Source: Nitrososphaeria archaeon (GTDB lineage Archaea; Thermoproteota; Nitrososphaeria; JACIWG01). From it: 64,000 nt of DNA. The notes under the pieces were generated by a model. The model was not told the DNA's origin and ran no database searches. It worked only from the letters and a program-made list of their open reading frames with translations. Below, one piece after another: positions 22,953-54,055 of the stretch; the first letter of the stretch is position 1, and each line of letters opens with the position of its first letter. The stretch lies in the NCBI GenBank assembly GCA_050011875.1, contig JBEKIG010000007.1, positions 1 to 64,000 on the forward strand, written 5' to 3'. The position numbers and the translations under genes were made by a program.

Positions 22953-23059
22953 TGGGCCCAATGGGATTTGAACCCACGGCTGACCGGTGTCTCAAGGGAG
23001 TTTAGATGTGTTACGTCCTATATGAGCCGGTCACTCTGACCAAACTGAGTTATGGGCCC
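22953..23059 (-). tRNA. tRNA(CAT), most likely tRNA-Ile2, with 32-nt canonical 37/38 intron (22989-23020)
   Basis: GGGCCCA acceptor is Ile-type (not the Met AGCGGG/GCCG type); anticodon arm ACCGG-CTCATA^A-CCGGT. Confidence 0.88.
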
Positions 23060-38176: not shown

Positions 38177-38319
38177 GCTAAGCAAAGGGTGCCACCTCAC
38201 TTTTTCTTTTTGTCGCAGTAAGACAACTAATGTTATATTCTATAAAATGTATTATCGTGGAAAATATTTTTTTATTGTGAAAAAACTTAATTTAAAGGTT
38301 GTCAAGGAACCTTTATGAT

Positions 38320-38394
38320 GGGCTCGTGGCTCAGTTTGGATAGAGTACAGGCCCTCTAAGCCTGGGGTCGTGGGTTCAAATCCCACCGGGCCCG
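38320..38394 (+). tRNA. tRNA-Arg(TCT) with C at position 33
   Basis: GGGCTCG/CGGGCCC acceptor, CAGGC-CCTCTAA-GCCTG. Confidence 0.9.
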
Positions 38395-38772
38395 TTTTAC
38401 CACTTTGGGATAGATTGCTATTTGGAATGATATACATGAGAGAGGATTGAAGATTATTTAAAAGATGTCACCAATAGTTTTTGCTTTCTTAATCAGATCT
38501 ATTTTTGTGTACTTTGGTGCCCTTGAAGGCTGGATAAGGCATTCGACATATTTTCTACTTAATTTAAATAATAAGCCTATATAGAGTTTGCAGCCTCCCT
38601 AAAATGGAGACTCCTCCCCCGTTCATCACAGCGATAGGCATTTACAAAACTTCTCCTAATCTCAAGCTGGGAACTACATCCACCTAACATCAAACAAACT
38701 TTACCAAATTGGTTAATGTCAGGATTATAAAATATCGTTTTATAATATCATTTGATAATCTTGGCTAATTCC

Positions 38773-38942
38773 GGCTCAAACAGAAATTTGTATGCAAAAT
38801 TAGCGCTAATTTTCCGCTTGTCGGCTCAGACTGATCTCCCTGTGTACAATTTAACATCCCTTTGCTCTCATACCGGACGCATTTAAGTTGAGCCGGCAAA
38901 AACTGTTTGCGCTAACTTTTTTGCCGATTTTCTGTTTGAGCC
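38773..38942 (+). repeat. 170-bp self-complementary non-coding element, copy A
   Basis: GGCTCA-21-TTAGCGCTAA-13-GGCTCA-60-TGAGCC-11-TTTGCGCTAA-21-TGAGCC; 15-bp terminal inverted repeat CGGCTCAAACAGAAA. Confidence 0.85.
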
Positions 38943-39153
38943 GAACATAGTTGCACCTGGTTAGTTCAACGTTGAACCTTAACAGATTCCGTAAAGGTTC
39001 TTTTATAGTGAACTTGACAAAAAATGCGTACATCAAAAAAGATAAAGAGAACATCAAAGGTTATACGTTCGATGAGAAGAAGGAATTAACCTAAGTACCT
39101 CCTTGGCTCTCCTCGTCGACACCCTAACTTTACCCTAAACCTATAAATTCTCT

Positions 39154-39220
39154 GATATCAAGCTTGATATCGGTCATGAAACAAATCCGGCGGCCCTTTG
39201 GCCCGCCGGAATCATGAAAC
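39154..39220. repeat. Palindrome plus GC-rich hairpin flanked by TCATGAAAC direct repeats
   Basis: GATATCAAGCTTGATATC (39154-39171); TCCGGCGG-9-CCGCCGGA (39186-39210); TCATGAAAC at 39174 and 39212. Confidence 0.75.
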
Positions 39221-39529
39221 GTCAAAACTCTAAAAAGATTACTTAATTTGTAAAGGTTGTTTATAACTACCCGCTTTCGGGCCCAGGAGCCGTTATCATA
39301 ATCGTCTTAGCGACCTCCTCAGGATCATGATTTTACGCTGGGGTTCAAGGTCGATTATATTGCTACGTCAAGAGCAATATGTTATGAACCACATTAAGAC
39401 AGAGAATTAAAATTTAATCTCATTTTAATCTGAAATCGAAGTGGTCTGTAACGTTAACATATAAACAGCTAATTGAGTGAAACCAGAAAATTTAAGTTCT
39501 TCAAACTATTCTTACAATTTAAGCGGTCA

Positions 39530-39828
39530 ATATAGAGAACATACGATTTGGCTTTTTCTATGAGCCCGGAAACGAAAATGAAGTGAAAATATTATTTGGC
39601 ACAGTCATACCTTATCTGGGTGAAGCCTTTGAGGAATTAGGACTTGGACAGTCCGAGTGGTATCTCGACGAGTTCTCTGATGGCGTTCCTGATTGTGTTC
39701 TCGTCATTGATGGAAAGAAAGTAGCGACTGAATTCGAGTTTGTGAGCTATAATTTCTATCAACACGGTCACGATCCAAAGAAGTGCGATTTAATAGTCTG
39801 CTGAAAACATACATGGTTGCATCGTTAA
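39530..39828 (+). pseudogene. PD-(D/E)XK-like nuclease-domain remnant
   Basis: YEPGNENEVKILF...VPDC...EFEFVSYNFYQHGHDPKKCDLIVC*KHTW; TGA where Trp is expected, no clear start. Confidence 0.65.
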
Positions 39829-39921
39829 AGATCCTTCGGAAGATGCCAGTTTAAGAATTGGTCTTGCTCATAAGAAAAGTTAATATCAGGTCGACATGTT
39901 CAAAGAATTAGCGGATAAGGT

Positions 39922-41067
39922 ATGACTGTTAAGAATATTGGAGTAGGAATGTTAGGTTACGCGTTTATGGGGAAAGCGCACTCTTATGCATTTAAGAATA
40001 TGCCTCTTTTCTTCTGGCCCCCTCCTGCGGTACCAGAGCTGGTTTCGATCTTTGGTAGAACGGATTCTAAAGTCGCGGAAGCCGCGCAAAACTTTGGGTT
40101 CAAAAAATATACAACCGATTGGCACGAGGTAATAGAGGATAAAGAAGTTGAAATTATCGATAACTGTCTTCCCAATGACATGCATCACGATATATCAATA
40201 GAAGCTATTGAAGCAGGCAAACATGTGATATGCGAGAAACCTCTTGCAATGAACAGTAGGCAGGCAAAGGAAATGTGGGATGTCGCAAGAAAGAACTCTG
40301 TAAAGTCTATGGTCGCTTTCAATTATAGATTTGTTCCAGCCGTTGGTCTAGCAAGGGAAATAGTAAGGTCAGAAAGACTGGGTAGGATCTACCATTTCAG
40401 GGCAAGATACCTTCAACAATGGCTTAGAAATCCTAACACTCCTCTAGTTTGGAGACTCGATAAAGAAAAGGCGGGAAGCGGACCTATAGGAGATCTTGGT
40501 AGCCACGTTTTTGACATCATTCGATTTGTAATGGGAGAAGTAAAAGCGGTTACAGCTATATCAAAGACGTTCGTCAAGGAAAGACCTTTGCCAACCGATA
40601 AAATGAAAAAGGGAAAGGTTTCTGTAGAAGATGCGTTTGAGTCCATCGTTGAGTTCGAGAATGGCGCAACAGGTACCGTTGAGGCATCGAGGATGGCAAC
40701 AGGGAGAAAGAATTATAATAACTTTGAGATCAATGGAGAAAAGGGTTCGATAGAATTCGATATGGAAAGGCTCAACGAACTTCGTTTCTATTCAGAAGAA
40801 GGTGATGTAAGTACGATTGGCTGGAATAATATTCTTGTGACAGAAAGCGTACACCCTTTCGTATCCCATTATTGGCCTTCGGGGCACGTAATCGGATGGG
40901 GAGATACATTCGTGAATGAGATATATCATTTTATGGACGTTGTAGTAAACGATAAAAGAGTCGATCCTATTGGTGCGACGTTCGAGGATGGCTACAAGAA
41001 TAATGTAATATTAGATGCTATCATACAATCTACGTTAACAGGTAAAAAAACACCTATAGTGTTCTAA
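39922..41067 (+). CDS. Gfo/Idh/MocA-family sugar oxidoreductase
   Basis: GYAFMGKAHS, CEKP, FNYR, GDLGSH. Confidence 0.92.
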   Translation: MTVKNIGVGMLGYAFMGKAHSYAFKNMPLFFWPPPAVPELVSIFGRTDSKVAEAAQNFGFKKYTTDWHEVIEDKEVEIIDNCLPNDMHHDISIEAIEAGKHVICEKPLAMNSRQAKEMWDVARKNSVKSMVAFNYRFVPAVGLAREIVRSERLGRIYHFRARYLQQWLRNPNTPLVWRLDKEKAGSGPIGDLGSHVFDIIRFVMGEVKAVTAISKTFVKERPLPTDKMKKGKVSVEDAFESIVEFENGATGTVEASRMATGRKNYNNFEINGEKGSIEFDMERLNELRFYSEEGDVSTIGWNNILVTESVHPFVSHYWPSGHVIGWGDTFVNEIYHFMDVVVNDKRVDPIGATFEDGYKNNVILDAIIQSTLTGKKTPIVF

Positions 41068-41128
41068 TGACGTAAACACTTTACGATAACGTATATTAAA
41101 TCGCAAAAAAATATGTTCTTAAAGGAGA

Positions 41129-43186
41129 ATGTTAAGTATGAATAAACTAGATAATTTATGCGTTAATACTCTACGCTTCCTATCGGTTGATGAAGTTGAG
41201 CAAGCTCATTCAGGTCACCCAGGGCTGCCCTTGGGGGCTGCACCCATGATGTACGTTTTGTGGGATCACTTCCTTCGTTTCAACAGCTCTAACCCTTTAT
41301 GGGTCAACAGAGACCGCTTTGTTCTATCTCCGGGACACGGTTGCGCATTACTCTACGCCCTATTACATGTATACGGTTATGATTTACCCTTAGAGGAGCT
41401 CAAAAGGTTCCGTCAATGGGGAAGTAAGACGCCAGGTCATCCAGAATATGGGCTTACGCCAGGCGTAGAAGCGACGACAGGTCCTCTAGGTCAAGGCTTT
41501 GCAAACGGCGTTGGGATGGCCATAGCAGAAAACTTCTTGTCAAGCTGTTTCAATATGCCTGACTATCCTGTAATTGATCACCGCACATACGTAATCTTAT
41601 CCGACGGAGATCTTATGGAAGGTATTGGTTCAGAGGCAGCTTCTTTAGCCGGCCTTTTACGCTTAGGTAAGCTCATCTGCCTTTACGATGACAACCACAT
41701 ATCCCTTGAAGGCCCAACAAGCCTAGCGTTTACAGAAAATGTGCAAGCCCGATTTGAGGCTTATGGCTGGTACGTCTTACAAGTCTCAGACGGTAACGAT
41801 CTTGAAAGTATAGAAAACGCTATCAGAATGGCTCAGGCTCAAAAAGATAAGCCCTCCCTAATTATAGTTCGTACCCACATAGGGTATGGAAGCCCAAGAC
41901 AGGACACAAAAGAGGCTCACGGCGAACCTTTAGGTCCAGAAGGCGCTATGGCGACCAAGAAAACCCTTGGATGGCCAGCCGAGCCTCTGTTCTACATTCC
42001 GGAAGAAGCTATGGATCACTTCAAAGAAACTGCCCAAAAGAAGATACAACATGAGAAAGACTGGAATAAACTAATGGAGGACTACGATCAAAAGTTCCCA
42101 GACCTAGCCGAACAATTATGGAAGGTGATAAGAGGCGAGCTACCCGATGACTGGAGAAGCTTCCTGCCTAGCTTTATGCCAGAAGAAGGCCCAATGGCAA
42201 CCCGCAACGCTTCTAACAAAGTTATGAATGTGCTATCTCAAAAACTACATTCTGCAGGGACTGCTCCACACCACTTCTTGGTTGGAGGCTCAGCGGATCT
42301 TTCACCATCCACTAAAACCATTCTATCAGGTTACGGAGACTTCGGTTTTGGCCAAGCATGTTCCCATAACATACATTTTGGGGTTCGCGAGCACGCCATG
42401 GCGGCTATCGCAAACGGAATGGCACTCCATAGCAAGTTTATCCCTTACACTGCAACATTCTTGATCTTCTCAGACTACATGCGCCCTGCCCTTCGCCTTT
42501 CAGCGCTCATGCAAACGCATGTTATTTTCATATTTACACACGACAGCATCGCCTTAGGCCAAGATGGCCCAACACACCAGCCAGTAGAGCATCTAATGAG
42601 CTTGCGAGCAATGCCGGGTATGACGGTCATACGACCAGCGGACGCAAACGAAACTTCTACAGCATGGCAAATCGCCATCGAACGCCGAGGTCCAGTTGCC
42701 TTGGTATTCACACGTCAAGAGCTTCCGATACTAGATCCTAAGCTTTATCCGATAGGAGAAGGAGTTCATAAAGGCGCCTACATCCTTTCAGAGCCCAAAG
42801 CAGCGATACCAGATATAATCCTTATAGCGACAGGATCAGAAGTTCATCTAGCCCTTGCATCTAGCCATGAATTGCAGAAAAAAGGAATTAAAACGCGTGT
42901 GGTTTCAATGCCTTCATGGGCTATTTTTGAAGAACAGCCAGTCGATTACAGACGATACGTTCTACCTCCCGATGTGCCCAAGTTAGCTATTGAAGCAGGC
43001 TCGACATTAGGTTGGTGCAAATACGTAGGCTACGACGGCGACATTATAGGCTTGGACCGATTTGGAGCCTCAGCTCCAGGAAACATTGTGTATGAACAGT
43101 TAGGTTTTAATGTACAAAACGTTGTCGAACACGCATTAAGATTATTAGACGAAATCGGTAAAACCAAAGTAGGTGATAAAAAATGA
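41129..43186 (+). CDS. tkt: Transketolase (full-length, bacterial type)
   Basis: [46 protein letters not shown]. Confidence 0.96.
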
Positions 43187-45957
43187 GTTCTTTAAAAAAA
43201 TTGCGTAATTATGGTCAGTCGTTCTGGATGGACTATATAAGACGAAGCCTTATAACAAGTGGGGAGCTGAAACACCTTGTAGAAGAAGACGGGTTAAGTG
43301 GTGTGACCAGTAATCCGACGATTTTCCAGAAAGCTATCGCCGGAAGCTTAGACTACGATGAAACGATAAGAAAGCTTCTCGCAGAATATCCCAATATTAA
43401 CGTACGAACATTGTTTGAGAAACTGTTGATCGAAGATATTCTGATGGTCGCAGACGTCCTGAGACCTGTCTACGATAGGACAGACGGCACAGATGGTTTT
43501 GTAAATATCGAACTGTCTCCTGAACTATCGCATGATACCAATGGAAGCATTATTGAAGCGCGTCGTTTATGGAAGGAAATTAACCGTCCAAATGTTATGA
43601 TAAAGGTTCCGGCTACGAATGAGGGAGTCCCTGCAATTGAAACACTGACAGCAGAGGGCATTAACGTGAACATCACCCTCATGTTCTCAATATCACAGTA
43701 CGAGTCTGTTGCTAACGCGTACATACGAGGATTAGAGCGCTGCACTAACCCTGAAAAAATATCTTCAGTGGCCTCATTCTTCTTAAGCCGCATCGATACA
43801 GTCGTCGATAAAAGGCTTGAAGAAATAGCTACATCCGAAGCTCTTGCGCTAAGGGGAAAAGCGGCTATTGTGACTGCGAAAATAGTCTACAGAAGGTTCC
43901 AAGAGATATTTAGTGGTGAACGCTGGGAAAAAATCTCACGAAGAGGAGCAAGAGTACAACGTGTTTTGTGGGCTAGTACAGGCACAAAGAATCCAACTTA
44001 TTCCAATGTCCACTACATCGAACCACTTATAGGCCCAAATACTATCAACACAATGCCGATTTCGACCTTCAACGCTTTCCGCGATCACGGGCATGTGAAA
44101 TCAACTATAGGTATAGGATTAGAAGAGGCAAAAGCTATATTTAAAAAATTAGGTGAACTGAAAATAGACTTGGATGCCGAAGCTGAGAAACTACAAGTGG
44201 ACGGCATTGCCGCGTTTACAGAATCGTACGAGGGACTGCTAAATACCTTAAAGGAGAAAACCTTAGCGATAACGCGAAAAATAGATTTGCACGAGTTAGA
44301 GCTTGGAAAATTCCAGGAGAAGGTAGATAGACGTCTAGAGCAATGGAATATGATCAATTTTATGAGGAGGATTTGGGCAAGGGATCCCACACTGTGGTCC
44401 TCTGAACCGATACCTGAGGTCTCAGACCGTTTGGGTTGGCTTACTTTGCCGGAGATTATGCACGACCAGATAAAAGATTTTACTTCATTCGCCGGAGAAG
44501 TAAAATCAGAAGGAACACGACATGTAGTTCTGCTGGGAATGGGAGGATCGAGCCTAGCTCCTGAGGTCTATCAGAACGTCTTCGGAAACAAAGACGGCTT
44601 CCCAAAGTTGATGGTCCTAGATAGCACACACCCATCAGCCATAAAAGATGTTGAGAAAAGGATTGTCTTACAGAAAACCCTGTTTTTGGTTTCAAGCAAA
44701 TCAGGAACTACAATGGAGACGCTCTCCCTCTTCTATTACTTCTGGAACAAAGTAAAAGGAGCAAACTCGAATGCGGGGCGACAATTTGTAGCAATCACGG
44801 ATCAAGGCACTTTCTTGGATAAAATGGCTAAGGAGCGGAATTTCCGCAAAATTTTTCGCGCACCTCTTGATGTGGGGGGAAGGTACTCCGCTTTAACAGC
44901 TTTCGGCCTTTTGCCGGCAGCGCTCATCGGTGTCGACATTCACAGCCTATTGGACGATGCTTGGACTATGTCTGAAAACTGTGCTTTCTGTGTGCCTGCC
45001 GATAAAGCATCCTGCTCCGTATTGGGCGCGGCTCTTGGAGAGTTGGCAAGAGAGGGCATGGATAAAGTAACTTTTATTACCTCGCCATCGATAAAGAGCT
45101 TCCCTGTATGGCTGGAACAGCTTATTGCTGAAAGCACGGGGAAGGATGGTAGAGGAATAATACCGATTGTTGATGAACCGTTAACTGACCTAAGAAACTA
45201 CGGTGAAGATCGATTCTTTGTCTTCTTTCTAAACAGGAGCGAAGGCCTTGAACCCCGAGAGCTGATGAGCAGGCTCGAAGCATCTGGACACCCCATAATA
45301 CGTATAGACTTGAACGGAAACGTCAACATATCTCAAGAAATCTTCTGCTGGGAGATGGCTGTCGCTTCGGCGGGGACCATTTTAGGCGTCAATCCCTTTA
45401 ATCAGCCCGATGTGCAGGGAGCAAAAGATCTTGCTAAAGAAATGATGGAGAAGGCGAAAAATGGGGAACTAGGTGACGCATATTCCTATGCTACATCAAT
45501 TCAGGACCTTGATTCCCTACTTAAAGCCTTAAAAGTTCTTCTTAGTCAGGCCAATAAAGGCGATTACGTTGCTATACAGGCATTCCTGCCAAGCTCTGAC
45601 GAAACTTCAAAAGCTCTTCAAAGGCTGCGTTCAGAAATCCTGAATAGATTACATCTGGCAACAATGTTGGGCTATGGCCCTAGGTATTTACATTCAACCG
45701 GCCAGCTTCATAAGGGTGGACCTAAAAGCGGAATATTTCTACAGATCGTAAACGAATACGATGACGACTTAGAGGTTCCGGAAACGGAATACACTTTTGG
45801 CACACTAATTCAAGCTCAAGCATTAGGCGAATATCAGACACTAAAGCGAATGGGACGAAGAATTTTGTGCGTCAACCTAAAAAAAGGTACTTTAGAAGGG
45901 CTTTTCAAATTGACTGAAATGATAGGCGAAGTCGACGTGCAAATCAAAAATGGGTGA
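43183..45957 (+). CDS. tal-pgi: Bifunctional transaldolase/glucose-6-phosphate isomerase
   Basis: N-half [23 protein letters not shown]; C-half GMGGSSL, SSKSGTT, VGGRYS, AESTGK, NPFNQP. Confidence 0.94.
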
Positions 45958-45960
45958 TAA

Positions 45961-46872
45961 TTGATGGAATTAGGGGTTGTAGGACTTGGAAGAATGGGCT
46001 CAAATATAGCAGAGAGGCTTGTCCGCAGCGGATTCAGAGTTGTTGGTTACGCTCGACATGCAGAGACAGTTAATAGCGTTGTTGATAAAGGAATAGTTGG
46101 AGCCTACTCCTTAGAAGAGCTGGTGCAAAAATTGAATTTCCCACGTATCATCTGGATAATGATTCCAGCGGGAGAGTCGGTGGACACGGTCATCCAACGG
46201 CTGACTCCTATGCTATCTAAAGGAGATATTTTGGTGGACGGTGGAAACTCTAACTATAAAGATAGCATACGCAGGGCTTCGGAACTAAGTGAAGAAGGGA
46301 TCAATTTTGTAGACGTAGGAACCAGCGGCGGAATATGGGGAGCGCAAGAAGGTTATTGCATGATGGTAGGTGGACAAAAGGAAGTAGTTGAACATCTTAC
46401 CCCAATCTTTAAGGCTCTAGCGCCTGGGCCAGATAAAGGCTGGGGGCACGTGGGCCCAAACGGCGCAGGCCATTTCGTTAAAATGGTCCATAACGGTGTA
46501 GAATACGGGCTTATGGAAGCCTTCGGAGAAGGATTCACTATTCTTAAACAGAAAAAAGAGTTTAGCCTAGACCTTAAACAGGTGAGTGAAATCTGGCGCT
46601 ATGGTAGTGTAATAAGGTCATGGCTTCTTGACCTGATAGCTCTCGCACTGGCTGAAGACCAAGGCCTGAAAGACATCAAACCCTATGTAACAGATTCCGG
46701 GGAGGGGCGATGGACTGTATTTGAAGCCATAGAAGAGAATGTGTCAGCACCCGTAATAACTATTTCGCTGCTACAACGTCTTCGCTCTAGAGACAATGAG
46801 GACTTTACTGATAGATTAATAGCGATTATGCGTCAGCAGTTTGGTGGGCATGATGTCAAACGAAGTGAATAA
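45961..46872 (+). CDS. gnd: 6-phosphogluconate dehydrogenase (short decarboxylating type)
   Basis: GLGRMG, DGGNS, GHFVKMVHNGVEYG, SGEGRW, FGGH. Confidence 0.94.
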   Translation: MMELGVVGLGRMGSNIAERLVRSGFRVVGYARHAETVNSVVDKGIVGAYSLEELVQKLNFPRIIWIMIPAGESVDTVIQRLTPMLSKGDILVDGGNSNYKDSIRRASELSEEGINFVDVGTSGGIWGAQEGYCMMVGGQKEVVEHLTPIFKALAPGPDKGWGHVGPNGAGHFVKMVHNGVEYGLMEAFGEGFTILKQKKEFSLDLKQVSEIWRYGSVIRSWLLDLIALALAEDQGLKDIKPYVTDSGEGRWTVFEAIEENVSAPVITISLLQRLRSRDNEDFTDRLIAIMRQQFGGHDVKRSE

Positions 46873-48346
46873 GGGTTCAAGAACCTCGCTGGACCCACAT
46901 ATATTCGTAATTTTTGGGGCCACCGGTAACCTCACCCGTAGAAAGCTGTTTCCCGTCATTTACAACCTATCAGCGAAGGGCACGTTACAGAAAAAGAACA
47001 TCATACTAGGTGTAGCACACAAGCAGGATCAAAATGATCAAAGCTTTCGAATTGAGGGGCTAGAAGTTCTGAGAAACTCAGGTTTACCGACAGACGACAA
47101 ATTGTATCAGGAATGGTGCAATGAATGCCTCTACTACCAATCAATAGGAAAGGAAAGCATGGAAGACTTCGAAAAACTTGCTGTGCGGATAAAGGTTCTT
47201 GAGCAGGAAAGAAAAATCCCAGGTAACAGAATATTATATATGGCGATTCCTCCCGAATCTTTTTTGAGCACTATCGAGAACTTGGCGAAGGTCGGGCTTA
47301 ACACTAGTGAAGGATGGACCAGATTGGTTGTTGAGAAGCCTTTTGGAGTTAACCTTAGTTCAGCCCAAGAGTTAAATATAACACTCCATCGTCACTTCGA
47401 TGAATCACAGATATTTCGGATAGACCATTTCCTAGGCAAGGAAACAGTTCAAAACTTAATGGTGTTCCGTTTTGGAAACACACTGTTCGAAGAGCTTTGG
47501 AACCGTGAGCACATAGAAAGCGTGCAGATCACGGTCGCTGAAGAAGTAGGGATTGAGGGAAGAGCAAAGCTGTACGAGCAAGTCGGAGCATTAGGGGACA
47601 TCGTTCAAAACCATCTTGCACAAATCTTGACACTTGTAGCGATGGAGAACCCTGAACTTTATGAAACCGATGCAATTCGCTACGAAAAACTGAAAGTTCT
47701 GCGTCAGATCAGACCGATCAATCCCGAAGACGTGGTATTCGGGCAGTATACTCATGGAATAGTTGAAGGTCAAGAGGTAAAAGGTTACAGAGAAGAGACT
47801 GGCATCCCTCAGAACTCGCAGATGAATACGTTTGCTTGCATGAAGTTGGAGGTCGCCAACTGGCGTTGGAAAGGTGTCCCATTCTACATTCGAGCAGGTA
47901 AACGCTTACCTAGGAGACTTACAGAAGTGATGATCAGATTCCACGCTCCTCCGGTCTCTCTCTTCCGCTCCTTTGAATCGATTTCTTCCATAAAACCTAA
48001 CATACTAACTATAATCCTGCAGCCGGATGAAGGTTTTGAGCTTCAGTTTCAGGTGAAAATGGTTGGGTTTCCTGTCAACCTTTCAACTCAGAGATTGCAC
48101 TTCAGATACGCTGAATCATTTGGGCCTCTACCTGACGCCTACGAAAACCTTCTCCTTGAGATTGTAAGGGGAAATCAAACACATTTCGTAAACTCGGAGA
48201 TGGTTTTAGAATCTTGGAGGATCTTTGATCCCCTAATCCGAATGAGCATCCCGGTTTATCCCTATCCCGCAGGTACATGGGGGCCATCGGAGGCTGATGA
48301 ACTTTTAAGAAGATACAAAGAGACATGGGAAAACAGATTAGATTAG
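46853..48346 (+). CDS. zwf: Glucose-6-phosphate 1-dehydrogenase (bacterial Zwf type)
   Basis: IFGATGNL, EKPFG, RIDHFLGKE, DIVQNH, RWKGVPFYIRAGK. Confidence 0.95.
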   Translation: MSNEVNKGSRTSLDPHIFVIFGATGNLTRRKLFPVIYNLSAKGTLQKKNIILGVAHKQDQNDQSFRIEGLEVLRNSGLPTDDKLYQEWCNECLYYQSIGKESMEDFEKLAVRIKVLEQERKIPGNRILYMAIPPESFLSTIENLAKVGLNTSEGWTRLVVEKPFGVNLSSAQELNITLHRHFDESQIFRIDHFLGKETVQNLMVFRFGNTLFEELWNREHIESVQITVAEEVGIEGRAKLYEQVGALGDIVQNHLAQILTLVAMENPELYETDAIRYEKLKVLRQIRPINPEDVVFGQYTHGIVEGQEVKGYREETGIPQNSQMNTFACMKLEVANWRWKGVPFYIRAGKRLPRRLTEVMIRFHAPPVSLFRSFESISSIKPNILTIILQPDEGFELQFQVKMVGFPVNLSTQRLHFRYAESFGPLPDAYENLLLEIVRGNQTHFVNSEMVLESWRIFDPLIRMSIPVYPYPAGTWGPSEADELLRRYKETWENRLD

Positions 48347-48375
48347 ACTTTAACAGCTTCTTGTAGAACATGCGA

Positions 48376-49009
48376 TCAAAGCGCAACTACGGCGTCTTCC
48401 AGTTCTTTTATCGCCTTGTCCACATCATCACTTTTAAAAATATAAAAGTCTGAAACAAAAACTTGAAGCTCCATAGTTTCTTGCTGGAGCAGTGTTACTA
48501 GGGTTTAAGCAGCCGTCAACTTCCAAAGGGATAGCGCAATCAACAGATCTGAGTCTTCTTATCTTTTCCAGATTTTTAGGAAGAAACTCCTCACAGTAAT
48601 TCCTAGGTTCACCGGTCATTATCCGTATGCCATCGACCATTTTTATATATGGCAAAACAACGTCGACTATTGTTGTATGCCTCAAAGATAGATAAATCTC
48701 TCTTCCACTATTCCTTAAATCATTTATGGAATATTCGACATTCTTCACCTATTCCGTGTGAACGATGGCGATATTAACTTACCAAACGTTCTTCTATATC
48801 CACTCCAAGGGTTTCCTGACCATCAAATGAGCCTCACAGTCAAGACTTTAAGTAAGCTTGAAATCGGATTGAAGCTAGACCTTGGGAACGAATTCGTCGT
48901 CAATTATATCATGTTGAACCCTCTTTATTTTATCAATAACTTGGTTCATCATCGAGCACAAGTATCTTTGTGCCTCTGCTATTATGGCTGGCAATACAAG
49001 AGTTTCCGT
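48376..49009 (-). pseudogene. rpe: Ribulose-phosphate 3-epimerase remnant
   Basis: VLPAII...VQHDIIDDEFVP...EAHLMVRKP...IMTGEP...LEVDGCLN; several stops and frameshifts, start decayed to ACG. Confidence 0.85.
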
Positions 49010-49088
49010 TAGGCTTGCTTAGCCTCTGATCAAGAATATCTATTACTTTAGATCAAAAGAACACTGACGATGAGCGCAGGATAAGAGG

Positions 49089-49763
49089 TCACGCCTCTAT
49101 TACAATAGAACGAGTCTTAGCTCCAAGCTGTTTTAAAAGGTTCGTCATATCTTCGACAAAAGGGTCTGGTCCACAAACATAAAAGTTCTGTTTGAAGCCC
49201 TTAACCTTCTCTTTTAGAAAATCTCCATTTATCCTGCCACTTTCGTATCCTGCCCTTCTTTCTCTAGTCAGAGTAAAGATCAAGTTTTCACTGTTCTCTC
49301 GGAACAGTGTCCTTAATTCGTTTTCCAGAATTATGTCATCATAAGTTTTGTTCGAAGATATTAGGGTGTTTCCAGCTATCTCTCCGTCCTTCTTCAACCT
49401 CCTAAGTATCGCTATGAAAGGAGTGATCCCTGCGCCTCCGGCGATAAATACACCAGGACCTGCATACTGAATGGTTCCAAATGGCTCCCTTATTATCAAC
49501 TCTGACCCCGGCTCTAGTTTATGCAGTTGATCGGTTACACCTTTATGTTCAGGATACCTTTTAATGGTGAACTCGAGGACAAGGTCCTCGTTTAGAGAGG
49601 TGAAGGTGAACTCTCTAAGCTTTCTCGTCCATCCAGCTTTATTTATTGACATAAGTGTGGCTTGCCCTGGAATATAATGAAGTCCTTTTGGCTTCTCCAG
49701 AACAAACCTTTTAACATCATGTGTAACCTGCTCTGTCATAAGAATTTTTACAACCTGCCTCAT
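49089..49763 (-). CDS. FNR-like FAD/NAD(P)-binding oxidoreductase
   Basis: PGQA, REFTFTS, IAGGAGITPF, YVCGP. Confidence 0.9.
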   Translation of the reverse strand: MRQVVKILMTEQVTHDVKRFVLEKPKGLHYIPGQATLMSINKAGWTRKLREFTFTSLNEDLVLEFTIKRYPEHKGVTDQLHKLEPGSELIIREPFGTIQYAGPGVFIAGGAGITPFIAILRRLKKDGEIAGNTLISSNKTYDDIILENELRTLFRENSENLIFTLTRERRAGYESGRINGDFLKEKVKGFKQNFYVCGPDPFVEDMTNLLKQLGAKTRSIVIEA

Positions 49764-50011
49764 AATTGAGTGAAGGTGTATTCTCGTTTAAAAATGTTTA
49801 TCTTGAAGGCCGCAAGAGATTTCACACAAAAAGATCACCATGGTCTTTCCATTGTTTGTTCTATACTTTGGCAGACCACACGACTCGTAGGCTTGAATAT
49901 CCTTTGAGTTTGTCGAGGTACTTGATAACGCTCACGATAAAGATAATATGAGATAATAATATAAGATGGCACGATTTTTATCGCAAATCAAGTCTTTAAT
50001 GTTTAAGACCG

Positions 50012-50785
50012 TCATTCTATGATCCTTCTAATCGTTACAGAGGCTATGGCCAAGAACAGTACAGTAAAGGCTACGAGGACTGCAATATCAACAAGAAGAT
50101 TGGAGTAGTCTCCCGTAAGAAGCATAGCTCTTACCGCGTCGACGACGTAACTCAGCGGGTTGAATTTTGATATGAACTGCAGCCAGCTGGGCATCAAAGA
50201 AATAGGGTAGATAGCGTTACTAGCGAAGAAAAGTGGCATTGTTATCGCCTGACCAATGCCCATCATACGATCACGAGTTTTAAGGAAGGAAGCAAGGATC
50301 ATCGATAAACTGGAGACGCACATGGCAAATACGACGATCACCGCAAGAACGCCCAATTCATCCAATGGATCGAACCTTAGGTTAACGCCGATTATCAGCG
50401 CTAGGGCGAAGATCATAACAGCCTGGAACAACCCTCTAACACTTGCCGACAACGCCTTCCCAACTATGATCGAAGACCGAGGCGAAGGTGTTGATAACAG
50501 CTTGCTAAGTATACCCGTGTCCCTCTCCCAGACAACAGTTATTCCATAGAAGATGGCTACGAACAGAACCGACTGAGCTAACACCCCCGGTGTAATAAAT
50601 TGAGTGTAGGTGAAATTTCCTATAAACTGAGTGATCCCTTTGATAGCACTAAACACTGTCCCGAACAACAGAAGCCAGAGGGCGGGTTGAACAAGACGTG
50701 TCCATAATTCTGTGGAGTCATGGCGTATCTTTCTAGCCTCCATCTCTGCTATAGTAAGCGAGCTACTAATGAATTCTCTGAACAT
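50012..50785 (-). CDS. ABC-2 exporter permease (DrrB-like)
   Basis: VQPALWLLLFG, PGVLAQ, NPLSYVVDAVR; about six TM helices. Confidence 0.92.
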   Translation of the reverse strand: MFREFISSSLTIAEMEARKIRHDSTELWTRLVQPALWLLLFGTVFSAIKGITQFIGNFTYTQFITPGVLAQSVLFVAIFYGITVVWERDTGILSKLLSTPSPRSSIIVGKALSASVRGLFQAVMIFALALIIGVNLRFDPLDELGVLAVIVVFAMCVSSLSMILASFLKTRDRMMGIGQAITMPLFFASNAIYPISLMPSWLQFISKFNPLSYVVDAVRAMLLTGDYSNLLVDIAVLVAFTVLFLAIASVTIRRIIE

Positions 50786-50791
50786 GGTTTC

Positions 50792-51808
50792 TCAACCCCC
50801 ATGTCTCATGAAGCTCCGTCGAGTTTGGCGCGTCTGGCTAAGACTCTCTGCCTCTTCTATTCTGACTTTGGCGTATTTTAGGAATACATCATCTAAGCTC
50901 GGTTTATTCAAGGAAATAGCCTCCACATTAGACCCTTGGGACTCGAAAAATTCTACGATCCTCGGTATTGCTTCTTCCCCGCTATTGGTCAAAATATCGA
51001 CTATTCCTCCTGCGTTTCGGACAACCTTCCCTATCTCGGCCAGGAGCAAAGCACTATCAAAACTTCCGCCAAGCTTAACTGTGACCATGTCACCCCCCAC
51101 ACTCTTCTTCAATTCTCTTGAGGTGCCTGAGGCAACGAACTTTCCCTCGTTCATAATCACTATCCTACTGCACAGCTCGTCGGCTTCACTCATATCGTGG
51201 GTTGTAATAATTACTGTCATGTTGAATTCCTTGTTCAGATTTTTGATGTTCTCCCACACCTGTCTCTTAGAAGACGGATCTAGGCCTATACTCGGCTCAT
51301 CAAGGAATAATACGCGAGGTCTACTAACCACCGCCTCCGCAATCTCTAGCCTCCTCATCATACCACCCGAGTAGTGTTTGACCAAATCATTAGCCCTGTC
51401 GACGAGCCCCATCTGCTGAAGTGCTCGAGCAATCCTCTCATCCCTATCCTTCTTGCTTACATGGAACAGTTTAGAGAAGATTAGAAGGTTCTCGTAGCCC
51501 GTTAAATCGCCGTCAGCTGAAATAGCCTGCGGTACATAGCCCATCATTTGCCTTGCTTTTGTAGGTGAACCTAATGCATCGATTCCGCAGATCTTGATAG
51601 ATCCTGACGTAGTTCTTGTCAGCCCCATTATCATCTTAATAATCGTCGTCTTACCGGCGCCATTTGGCCCTAGGAGGCCGAAGATCTCTCCTTCTTGTAC
51701 CGAAAAATTCACATCATCGACAGCCCTGAAATTTGGTGGATAGATCTTAGTTAGGTCGACTACTTGTATGGCTGCATTTTGTTCAACTTGAGTGATGGGT
51801 TCCATCAA
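50792..51808 (-). CDS. ABC exporter ATP-binding protein (DrrA-like)
   Basis: GPNGAGKTT, YSGGM, LFLDEP, PSLDDVFL. Confidence 0.94.
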   Translation of the reverse strand: MMEPITQVEQNAAIQVVDLTKIYPPNFRAVDDVNFSVQEGEIFGLLGPNGAGKTTIIKMIMGLTRTTSGSIKICGIDALGSPTKARQMMGYVPQAISADGDLTGYENLLIFSKLFHVSKKDRDERIARALQQMGLVDRANDLVKHYSGGMMRRLEIAEAVVSRPRVLFLDEPSIGLDPSSKRQVWENIKNLNKEFNMTVIITTHDMSEADELCSRIVIMNEGKFVASGTSRELKKSVGGDMVTVKLGGSFDSALLLAEIGKVVRNAGGIVDILTNSGEEAIPRIVEFFESQGSNVEAISLNKPSLDDVFLKYAKVRIEEAESLSQTRQTRRSFMRHGG

Positions 51809-51955
51809 ATGTGCACCATCACATTGTTTAATTAAAGATATGTATTTTTGATTAGATCTTCTATGCAGAGAATTTTCTTGAAGGATGGACCGTAGATAGA
51901 ATAGTACAGCTGACGGTCCTTCACTTAGAAAAATATTGCCTTCAAAGCATTAAAG

Positions 51956-52071
51956 CGGGCCCGGTGGGATTTGAACCCACGACCTACAGCTTAGGAGGCT
52001 GCCGCGCTATCCATTCTGCGCGGACGCCTACTGTTCATACAACAGCAGAACGCCCTCTGCGCTACGAGCCC
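51956..52071 (-). tRNA. tRNA-Arg(CCT) with 41-nt D-loop intron at about 15/16 (52016-52056)
   Basis: GGGCTCG acceptor, GCAGC-CTCCTAA-GCTGT; GCGC-AGA / GCGC-AGA junctions with a hairpin intron; mature length 75 nt. Confidence 0.92.
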
Positions 52072-53162
52072 AGGCCCAACATTAAACTGTCAAGAGGCGT
52101 TCTTTAAGCTTTTTTCTTAGATCATAGAAGTTGGTTTAGGATGTTCATTGTCTATCATTATGGTTTTTTGTGAGGCCTATTTGCTAATGATGAAAAAATT
52201 TTGGAAAGTCCATGACTAGTCAGCAAGTCTTCTATGCCTAATGATATGATCTTATGTTATTGGGTTATGCACTAGTAGGTAGCATTATGACTTAAAATTT
52301 GATATCAAGACTTGATGCTGATTGATTCCATTTTTTATTTTTAATAGTTAATTCCACTTTAGTCTACTTTAATCAAGATAAAGGTCTGTCTTAGATATCA
52401 TGTCAACGATTAAGTAAAGATTTATCGTGAATAAACATGTTGACGATTTTTTTCGTCACTAAACTGTTATTAATTAATCAAGGAATTCATTGATAGAAAA
52501 GCGTTCGACAACTAGCCTAACCAAGATCAGTGAATTGTTTAAGAACAGCTGCTCTTTACTGAATATACAGAGTTTCCTGATTATAACAAGCTTTTTTATT
52601 TTAAACCTGATTCGATCCTTCATGCTGACAAATCCGAAATCATATAACCTTTGTAACTAGTATCTCTTTATAGTATCCCTTTAGTATTCGTCCTAATGGC
52701 CCTTTAATAGATTCTTTTAATGCTTCTCTAAATTCTTCCCAGTGAGATTCCCATTCATAGCCCAACAAATTACAGGAACATAAGAAGCATGACCGTGCTT
52801 CTGGCGGAGTCATGCGAGGTAAAGCAAGGTAAGGTTCATAACCACATTAGGTTCTATATCGCGTTAGGAAGAAACTATAACTTCGCGATAATAAATGTCT
52901 ATACCAACAAACTTGAAGTAGGTTTCCCTTTGTAATCGCCTGAACAAGATTCTACATTATTCGTCTGGATTATAGGAGTTGGATGCGTAATCATACTTAT
53001 AGCTGAGATAATATACTTCTTGCTATCAGTAAGGGATTAAGAATACCCATTTCCTTTCAACTATTTCCCAAACTGGTAAACGGTTTTTAAGGTCGTTTCA
53101 AGGCCAAAATTACCTAAAAAAATAGTCAAAAAACATCATAAAAACATTTGATGAAACGAGTC

Positions 53163-53182
53163 TGGCACCGCGCGCGGTGCCA
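53163..53182. repeat. Perfect 20-bp GC-rich palindrome
   Basis: TGGCACCGCGCGCGGTGCCA in an AT-rich context. Confidence 0.85.
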
Positions 53183-53216
53183 TTTACTAATATGGTAAAC
53201 GTAAGGACACATAACT

Positions 53217-53435
53217 TCAGAGAATTTTTTTCTTGATCAAGTCGATTTTTAAGTTTTTTACTTCGTCTAAAGTGCCAGCTATGCTAACTTGTATCGCCTG
53301 CTGGTTGACGCACACTTCTTTGAACCTTCTGTCCTGGCTTTCCACTAAACTGGTGAGGGCGGCCTTTTGTTCGTTCATCGCCGCTAAAATCAGAAGCTGT
53401 GTCTCCCTGTCTGTTAGCTTTCCCTTAGCAATCAC
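53217..53435 (-). CDS. Small coiled-coil protein, probably 5'-truncated
   Basis: Open frame continues upstream (FLTALGILAPESVDLIKRVIAKGKLTDRETQLLIL) into the repeat region. Confidence 0.5.
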   Translation of the reverse strand: MIAKGKLTDRETQLLILAAMNEQKAALTSLVESQDRRFKEVCVNQQAIQVSIAGTLDEVKNLKIDLIKKKIL

Positions 53436-53559
53436 TCTCTTTATCAGGTCAACAGATTCAGGTGCAAGTATCCCTAACGCTGTTAAGAATGTTTGGCGCG
53501 CTAACTTAAATAAAAATAAAAAATAGTTTGAGCCAAAAAAAATATTATAAATTTGGTTT

Positions 53560-53729
53560 GGCTCAACACGTTTTAAAACAAAATGCTAACGCCAACTATT
53601 TCCTATTGGCTCAACTTATTATCATTTTGCATGAGAGTGTGTTGATGTTTAATATTGCACAGGGGGATCATACTGAGCCAGTTTGCAGAATATTTAGCGT
53701 TAACATTTCCGATTTTTTTTGATTGAGCC
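53560..53729 (-). repeat. 170-bp self-complementary non-coding element, copy B (inverted homologue of copy A)
   Basis: Plus strand GGCTCA-20-CTAACGCCAA-12-GGCTCA-60-TGAGCC-14-TTAGCGTTAA-20-TGAGCC; extra boxes at 53529 and 53756. Confidence 0.85.
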
Positions 53730-54055
53730 AGAATTAAAAATCTTAAAAAAACTCCGGCTCAAGATGTTATTTACGATGTTTGGTCTGTAAATGGTATACT
53801 AGTTAACATCAGAAACAGGTAGTGTTCACTCCCTTTTTTTCGGGTTAAAATGAACAAACATCAACAAGTATCCCCGTGTGAGTTTTGTTAATCTGGGATA
53901 TTTATAAAACTAAGCATTTTCAAATCTTAATATTTTTTGTCTGAGGCCTTTGCATACAAGCAATTTATCAAAGGTTGTTCTTGGCAGTGTCAATCATCTG
54001 TTTTGTTTTTTATAAAAAGAATTGAAAATGCTGGTATAACGTTAATTTTTTGGGT

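Follow-up and report, generated by a model that had tools for sequence, protein, structure and literature searches.

The 64,000-nucleotide (nt) stretch of DNA analyzed here (the window) comprises positions 1 to 64,000 of contig JBEKIG010000007.1 of a Nitrososphaeria archaeon (GenBank assembly GCA_050011875.1; 2.64 Mb, 119 contigs, 97% complete; referred to below as G000) and contains two copies, A and B, of a hairpin-like inverted repeat that we name H. An earlier note, made from the sequence of the window, had treated A and B as a pair of elements; a whole-genome search with BLAST and then nhmmer instead recovered a dispersed repeat, whose 15 full copies and 2 fragments are spread over 10 contigs of G000; the one other species of the genus (G001) carries 8 copies. 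The best-supported reading is that H is a new, modular palindromic repeat family, resembling MITEs (transposable elements of the miniature, inverted-repeat type), that lies in variable islands, with several copies beside tRNA or restriction-modification genes. Put more specifically, and with a probability that we place at about one in two, H is a genus-restricted, non-coding, MITE-like intergenic repeat of the foldback type that persists and spreads by recombination or by mobilization in trans.

Copy A (38770 to 38945, + strand; covariance-model score of 164 bits) and copy B (53557 to 53732, − strand; 193.5 bits) were located by a search for GGCTCA boxes, and both match the model over 176 nt. 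The two homologous 170-bp elements described previously (38773 to 38942 in A; 53560 to 53729, − strand, in B) lie within these matches, and their box positions, box spacing, and 60-bp cores proved exact to the base. In the window motif search, the boxes of A are at 38773 and 38823 (+) and at 38889 and 38937 (−), and those of B are at 53560 and 53608 (+) and at 53674 and 53724 (−), with spacings of 50 and 48 bp in both copies. By alignment, the core of A (38829 to 38888, + strand) is asymmetric, with a variable stretch of ~20 nt between conserved blocks; that of B spans 53614 to 53673 (− strand). A aligns without gaps to the reverse complement of B, the sequence blocks named in the earlier note are kept, and every box is preceded by C in A and by T in B (four boxes each), all as originally claimed. 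GGCTCA occurs 43 times in the window compared to 27.3 ± 5.3 times in shuffled sequences, a count reached by 1 of 100 shuffles, so the two clusters of four boxes are not due to chance. Folded as DNA, A has a z score of −5.99; folded as RNA, B has a z score of −5.53 on its own strand and −2.37 on the opposite strand. For A and for the own strand of B, none of 200 dinucleotide shuffles folded as well.

The full copies in G000 fall into two subfamilies, A-type (n = 5, including A) and B-type (n = 10, including B). In B-type copies, the element extends beyond the 170 bp to a third, outer box pair, identified at B by box search and alignment: box 1 (53756 to 53761, + strand) reads TTGAGCC in the orientation of B and can pair locally with box 2, and box 6 (53529 to 53534, − strand) reads GGCTCAA. 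The resulting order is left, right, right, core, left, left, right.

When 41 related genomes were searched with a covariance model of the 15 full G000 copies, two of them matched, G000 and G001; none of the 8 other genomes of the family and none of the 31 from the class contained a match. The order is represented by only 10 genomes, 2 of which contain H. A pattern scan of metagenome contigs returned nine loci: five from one metagenome, with scores like those of G000's own copies; one true divergent copy (L047; 96 bits) from an unrelated metagenome; and three chance matches without a hairpin, which were discarded. The same pattern scan gave no matches in viral contigs, and H had no match in plasmid and phage collections. 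The sequencing runs that contain window DNA are peat metagenomes. An Rfam scan of the whole window returned only tRNAs at the gathering threshold; relaxing the threshold to an E value of ≤1 added a single chance match near B (CrcZ, 12 bits) and none near A. Within G000, tandem pairs of diverged copies occur at three loci, two on contig C4 (55.9 and 56.5 kb; 204.5 and 205.0 kb) and one on contig C22. Both fragments are on C22, where the copies carry internal deletions indicative of decay.

H is unusually constrained in length and layout. Among 23 copies, 19 are exactly 176 nt, and the others are 174, 175, 177, and 177 nt, at an overall identity of ~70 to 90%. The arms are complementary only at the outer box, at a mid-arm palindrome, and at the inner box, three segments placed at fixed distances around the core; the spacers between paired segments are unpaired, yet conserved within a subfamily. 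A coding reading of H was ruled out: none of the 19 equal-length copies is open in five of the reading frames, and only 4 are open in the sixth; variability by codon position (0.244, 0.251, and 0.230) has no 3-nt period.

The earlier proposal that the arms covary within each copy held up in the alignment of 24 copies, in which 89.6% of consensus-structure cells pair compared to 75.7 ± 1.0% after shuffling, and the covariation score is 0.400 compared to 0.182 (0 of 500 shuffles as high in either case). Sliding the partners out of register left only 24 to 40% of cells paired, and both sides have changed in 16 of 30 pairs. In some copies the box word itself is altered on both arms, for example, to TTGCTCA or GTTCA variants, and the outer and inner box pairs may differ inside one copy. 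Since boxes change jointly on both arms, what is preserved is the match of arm to arm rather than one protein-binding word. The best-supported reading of these patterns is that the inverted repeat is maintained by selection on, or copying of, arm complementarity.

Core blocks of H occur in varying combinations from copy to copy, and at one flank common to both species, an A-type copy is present in one and a B-type copy in the other. Across 15 pairs drawn from 6 units, H is 85% identical, whereas the linked small gene O1 (described below) is 67% identical and only 53% identical at third codon positions. The higher conservation of H than of O1, together with the mosaic cores, suggests either exchange between copies or strong constraint. 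From their mosaic cores and swapped flanks, the copies appear to recombine with each other, and they decay by internal deletion.

Several observations weigh against a MITE-like nature or limit how far the comparison can be taken. Although H has the size and composition of a MITE (176 nt, or ~300 bp with the outer boxes, and non-coding), is dispersed in many copies, and carries inverted boxes and arms, its ends cannot be fixed, as homology runs on into flanking modules. No target-site duplication was found at the copies or at the G001 junctions; a candidate flanking repeat (CAAATTG, ACCAAATTG) is not such a duplication, because the sequence that follows it is conserved between copies and is part of the larger cassette. 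With nhmmer, no further arm match flanking a transposase gene, and hence no autonomous partner with the same ends, was found in G000, a 97%-complete genome in which one could be missed; genes for TnpB and DDE transposases are on other contigs or far from the copies. The absences of A and B from G001 correspond to replaced segments (1.3 and 1.9 kb in G000) rather than to clean empty sites. The strict length, conserved core, and 85% identity fit a selected functional element as well as recent spread. As for the arms, the shuffle controls overstate significance, since the 24 copies are related to one another and were drawn from two genomes, themselves related, and one metagenome; moreover, helix 3 is self-palindromic and is in both arms, so part of its covariation could reflect two dimer-binding sites of one kind, and part of the mid-arm signal may be local. 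H is therefore MITE-like only: target-site duplication, defined ends, and a partner transposase were each tested for and not found, and membership in the MITE class is not established.

Comparison with the sister species places A and B in their genomic setting. The 20 kb around them is syntenic with contig C7 of G001 at 92 to 97% identity, in the same order and orientation, and the G001 region includes the pentose-phosphate island that A and B had been said to bracket, but neither A nor B. The bracketing is therefore coincidental, and a composite transposon formed by A and B with the DNA between them was ruled out on the same grounds. Instead, A and B lie in species-specific replaced segments next to tRNA-Arg genes. 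In the synteny alignment, the segment around A (38529 to 39813; 1,285 bp) is replaced in G001 by an unrelated 384 bp, and its left break at 38529 is also the start of the repeat homology; the segment around B (52073 to 54005; 1,933 bp) is opposite ~1.1 kb in G001 that, from its sequence, seems to encode an Hsp20-like protein. The flanks of H copies in G001 map to scattered places in G000, in two cases with only one side syntenic, and locus L030 of G001 corresponds to rearranged islands without a clean empty site.

An inversion or excision of the 14.6 kb between A and B had also been suggested for checking. No inversion is fixed between the two species, and contigs from four DNA sequencing runs break at the repeats without yielding a convincing joint of either kind. 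Three other joints were seen in these contigs: one between 38386 and 51955 (sides of 20 to 23) reflects tRNA similarity, one between 38786 and 38883 falls inside the palindrome, and an opposite-strand joint between 38615 and 53748 (one run, side of 39) is best explained by another copy with a common upstream module.

Homology between copies continues past H into flanking modules, so that H is embedded in a larger unit with the order U module, P-site, H, often O1, a GC hairpin, and a T-run. BLAST against the source genome and alignments delimit the full repeated cassette at A (38529 to 39084, + strand), which consists of the U module, the P-site, H, and a TATA-like region after H. The P-site motif, ACCAAATTGGTTAATG (38703 to 38718, + strand), is element-specific by its count in the genome: of the 19 occurrences of ACCAAAYTGGT in G000, 18 have an H copy within 1.5 kb, and the motif always shares the strand of H. 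Direct P-site repeats flank H and O1. A conserved TATA-like stretch comes after A-type copies; beyond it lie short unrelated sequence or other orphan genes.

O1, downstream of B-type copies, encodes an orphan small protein, which at B (53217 to 53435, − strand) has 72 amino acids (aa) from a GTG start and was characterized by alignments, profile searches, and a structure model. Its conserved 67-codon core has no indels in six copies, and differences are concentrated at third codon positions (e.g., 24, 21, and 38 at positions 1, 2, and 3), from which we conclude that O1 is, or was, a real gene. All eight O1 loci in G000 are downstream of an H copy in the same orientation, and both O1 copies seen beside H in G001 also follow it, one of them next to a divergent H. 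O1 had no match in Pfam. A profile of it gave three real matches, in related clusters, and one weak match among 1.84 billion representatives, and a single locus, in the sister metagenome-assembled genome, in a scan of genome contigs. The predicted structure is a single long helix (predicted local distance difference test score [pLDDT] of 93) of coiled-coil type. Seven other small neighbors were likewise without a Pfam match, and the only hits obtained were weak N6_Mtase/MmeI domains and one chance match.

O1 is followed by a conserved non-coding module (52954 to 53215, − strand; BLAST against the source genome and alignment) with a GC hairpin at ~53164 to 53181 just past the O1 stop. The stem of this hairpin differs between copies yet stays complementary, and 7 to 8 T residues come next; as judged from sequence, it looks like a terminator. 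Overlapping this module at B is a remnant of O2 (52941 to 53040, + strand; alignment, with the frame read by eye), a small membrane-peptide gene convergent with O1 that has decayed here and has no start codon. O2 is intact on contig C4 (203.9 to 204.0 kb, − strand; 47 aa, hydrophobic) and occurs also on contig C14, and it is conserved at the protein level in several units.

The alternative that survives best, although we consider it possible rather than probable, is that copies of H are structured non-coding RNA (ncRNA) genes of ~180 to 200 nt, each with its own upstream TATA-like box and ending at T-runs, whose product would fold into a rod that is interrupted by internal loops and ends in a conserved apical region. 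Covarying arms, exact length, the stable fold of B on its own strand, and a conservation exceeding that of the adjacent coding gene would all suit such an RNA, as would the T-runs within and after the right arm and the AT-rich, TATA-like stretches that both subfamilies have 20 to 50 nt upstream of the first box. However, the distance of the TATA-like stretches is not fixed, H has no relative in Rfam, and a search of the 60-nt core for covarying helices gave only noise. Neither does the family favor one strand. The G-U pairs that the earlier note placed on the same homologous strand are present in A and B but do not generalize, as 42 candidate pair positions in 19 copies contain 83 G-T and 72 A-C cells. 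Likewise, B does fold better on the strand proposed in that note, but among 23 copies the opposite strand is the better folder in 16, the proposed strand in 5, and 2 are ties (RNA parameters, simple shuffles).

Recognition as double-stranded DNA would accommodate the absent strand bias, and an unlikely proposal along these lines is that H is an operator or promoter array for the downstream small genes, and sometimes for a divergent upstream gene, at which a multimeric protein would occupy the six boxes and two palindromes. The strict spacing and the palindromic, dimer site-like motifs of the mid-arms are consistent with this, as are the position of H upstream of O1, in the same orientation, at eight of eight G000 loci and the MmeI-like gene divergently upstream in contigs C10 and C2 (where it is broken) and at G001 locus L028. 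On the other hand, boxes change jointly, the outer two as one pair and the inner two as another (e.g., in C11:21196 and C4:55885), which a single host regulator would not cause; at least seven copies of H lack O1, some of them standing before unrelated genes; O1, as a predicted long helix without a Pfam match, has no recognizable DNA-binding domain; and the supposed target gene is far less conserved than H.

Site-specific recombination is a third possibility, and one that we regard as improbable. H could be an invertible promoter switch, in which the core flips, or a folded, attC-like cassette site. The core is asymmetric between inverted arms, the arms stay matched with no bias toward either strand, as would be needed for a crossover region, and the tandem pairs of diverged copies, the direct P-site repeats around H and O1, and the location of H at synteny breaks would all be expected; in addition, a tyrosine recombinase gene lies 2.7 kb from the copy on contig C16, at the edge of synteny with G001. 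Against a switch, the orientation of the core relative to arms and flanks is identical in 24 of 24 copies, no joint with an inverted core was found in the contigs of the four runs (although contigs drop rare variants), and the A-B region has the same order and orientation in both species. Against a cassette site, at most two copies are in tandem and no long cassette arrays exist; a conserved sequence of 176 nt is unlike attC; and no recombinase is beside the other copies, including those in the window. Equally doubtful is the broader idea that units of P-site, H, and small gene are the mobile gene cassettes of an archaeal system for site-specific recombination that is integron-like or of some other new kind. 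H would then fold into a site for recombination or regulation, with the complementarity of its arms recognized as structure. Such a system, if real, would account for the orphan cargo genes, the tandem pairs of diverged units, the exchange of A-type for B-type copies at a common flank, and the occurrence of H where synteny breaks.

Finally, the origin suggested in the earlier note, a single-strand or iteron origin of plasmids or viruses integrating at tRNA genes, is highly improbable given more than 15 copies per genome (15 full and 2 fragmentary) none of which adjoins a Rep or primase gene, the lack of any Rep, primase, or helicase gene common to the neighborhoods within ±3 kb of the 15 full copies, no matches in viral contigs, plasmids, or phages, and only 5 of 17 copies less than 2 kb from a tRNA, even though the shape of H, an extended imperfect palindrome around a conserved center, resembles that of ssoA-type origins, three loci adjoin tRNA-Arg genes, and copies lie in variable islands. 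Nor is H an archaeal origin recognition box (ORB) or a CRISPR array, as had already been judged and as its copy number and inverted boxes bear out: for the former, no common replication gene was found within ±3 kb, in a comparison that did not search for orc1/cdc6 itself, and the latter was rejected on account of the inverted boxes and the conservation of the intervening sequence between copies.

Under the MITE-like reading that we favor, H would most likely act as a cis-acting nucleic acid structure just upstream of small genes. It could do so as a transcript hairpin or as a transiently unpaired DNA foldback, serving as a leader, insulator, or terminator, and promoter or protein-binding sequence would then reside in the core. 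For H to spread, a transposase or recombinase would have to come from elsewhere.

Genes farther from H are heterogeneous among loci, and the recurrent neighbors are few. The tRNA-Arg genes noted near A and B are both real. tRNA-Arg(TCT), found by tRNA search at 38319 to 38395 (+ strand), is 375 bp upstream of A and has a twin on contig C4 (55581 to 55657; 98.8% identical over 82 bp); an A-type copy follows each of the two within 230 to 380 bp. Near B, tRNA-Arg(CCT) (~51955 to 52076, − strand) contains a 34-nt insert (~52022 to 52055) that is missing from the sister species' orthologue, and it is the intron-less G001 gene that ARAGORN calls Arg(CCT); for the G000 gene, Rfam covers only part, and the intron mode of ARAGORN gives another name. 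Family-wide, the link to tRNA genes that holds at A and B is weak, at the 5 of 17 copies within 2 kb given above. Elsewhere in the window, a 107-nt Rfam tRNA match at 22953 to 23059 (− strand), unreported by the default run of ARAGORN, is probably an intron-containing tRNA.

The MmeI-like restriction-modification gene is the neighbor divergently upstream of H at three loci. On C10 (8546 to 11873, − strand), it encodes ~1,100 aa resembling an MmeI/Eco57I-type restriction-methyltransferase, with an NPPW motif read by eye; its duplicate on C2 (~110.8 to 113.5 kb) is split into open reading frames (ORFs) of 533 and 329 aa, and a related N6_Mtase/MmeI gene is in the same position beside a G001 copy. 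G000 has four tyrosine recombinases, and only the one on C16 is near H. That gene (C16:75060 to 76247) starts where synteny with G001 stops (C16:75071), and the segment beyond it, more than 9 kb long and including the C16 copy of H, is possibly an integrated element. A ParB-like appearance of an ORF at L047 was dropped, as it had no support from Pfam. In the window, an orphan ORF of 73 aa (39583 to 39804, + strand) without a Pfam match marks the right end of the G000-specific segment around A. The pentose-phosphate cluster between A and B (39922 to 48346) combines the oxidative and non-oxidative branches, with genes for a GFO/IDH/MocA oxidoreductase, a transketolase, a 924-aa fusion of transaldolase and phosphoglucose isomerase, 6-phosphogluconate dehydrogenase, and glucose-6-phosphate dehydrogenase. 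Two stretches of it, 41118 to 44227 (transketolase and the start of the fusion) and 45989 to 46820 (6-phosphogluconate dehydrogenase), are without a counterpart in the syntenic region of G001.

Repeats of this kind are almost undescribed in Nitrososphaeria. A literature search for Thaumarchaeota or Nitrososphaeria together with MITEs returned nothing relevant and no report of such elements, and the words "MITE" and "hairpin" occur 0 times in the main text of a survey of thaumarchaeal integrated elements (PMC6563490). In this peat lineage, the H family is a marker of variable islands and falls at points of rearrangement between two species, and it is an unusually clean intergenic palindrome in which exact length conservation is combined with paired arm changes. 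Were H transcribed, it would count as a new structured RNA of archaea; were it a recombination site, a cassette system not known so far would be implied. There is also a practical warning, in that repeats like H break assemblies and can mimic island boundaries.

Among known systems, the ssoA-type origins of rolling-circle plasmids are long imperfect palindromes with a conserved central motif. They occur once per plasmid, beside the Rep gene, and have a single working orientation, whereas H is chromosomal and multicopy with no Rep gene nearby. attC sites are likewise imperfect palindromes whose structure is better preserved than their sequence, and they lie beside small, often orphan, cassette genes in variable regions. 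However, attC sites are 57 to 141 nt long, have R and L boxes and little sequence conservation, and form long tandem arrays beside an IntI gene; in contrast, H is 176 nt, 79 to 85% conserved, and mostly solitary, with no adjacent integrase.

On the favored reading, H would work in the manner of intergenic palindromes of the Correia or ERIC class. Enterobacterial repetitive intergenic consensus sequences, or intergenic repeat units (ERIC/IRU), and repetitive extragenic palindromes with their bacterial interspersed mosaic elements (REP/BIME) are, like H, imperfect palindromes of intergenic DNA; they are transcribed with neighboring genes, and compensatory changes keep the hairpin. Unlike H, they are bacterial, shorter (~35 to 127 bp), and usually far more numerous, and REPs have a dedicated REP-associated tyrosine transposase (RAYT), to which nothing comparable was found for H. 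BIMEs are mosaic and modular (PMC2817692). In archaea, the SM elements of Sulfolobus and the PATE of Haloquadratum, among others, are MITEs, that is, non-autonomous repeats (PMC10969869). Such archaeal MITEs derive from identifiable insertion sequences with matching ends, whereas a parent of H was not found in the 97%-complete genome. Neisseria has a bacterial MITE in its Correia elements, which number in the hundreds and possess a TA duplication and well-defined inverted repeats at their termini; in H, an archaeal element with 15 full copies and 2 fragments, no such ends or duplication were found, and three separated paired segments stand in place of terminal repeats. H nevertheless shares with Correia elements the character of a short, non-coding, multicopy inverted repeat situated mostly just upstream of genes; the central site of Correia elements is functional, promoters can be carried on them, and hairpins form in their transcripts (in part after PMC10969869).

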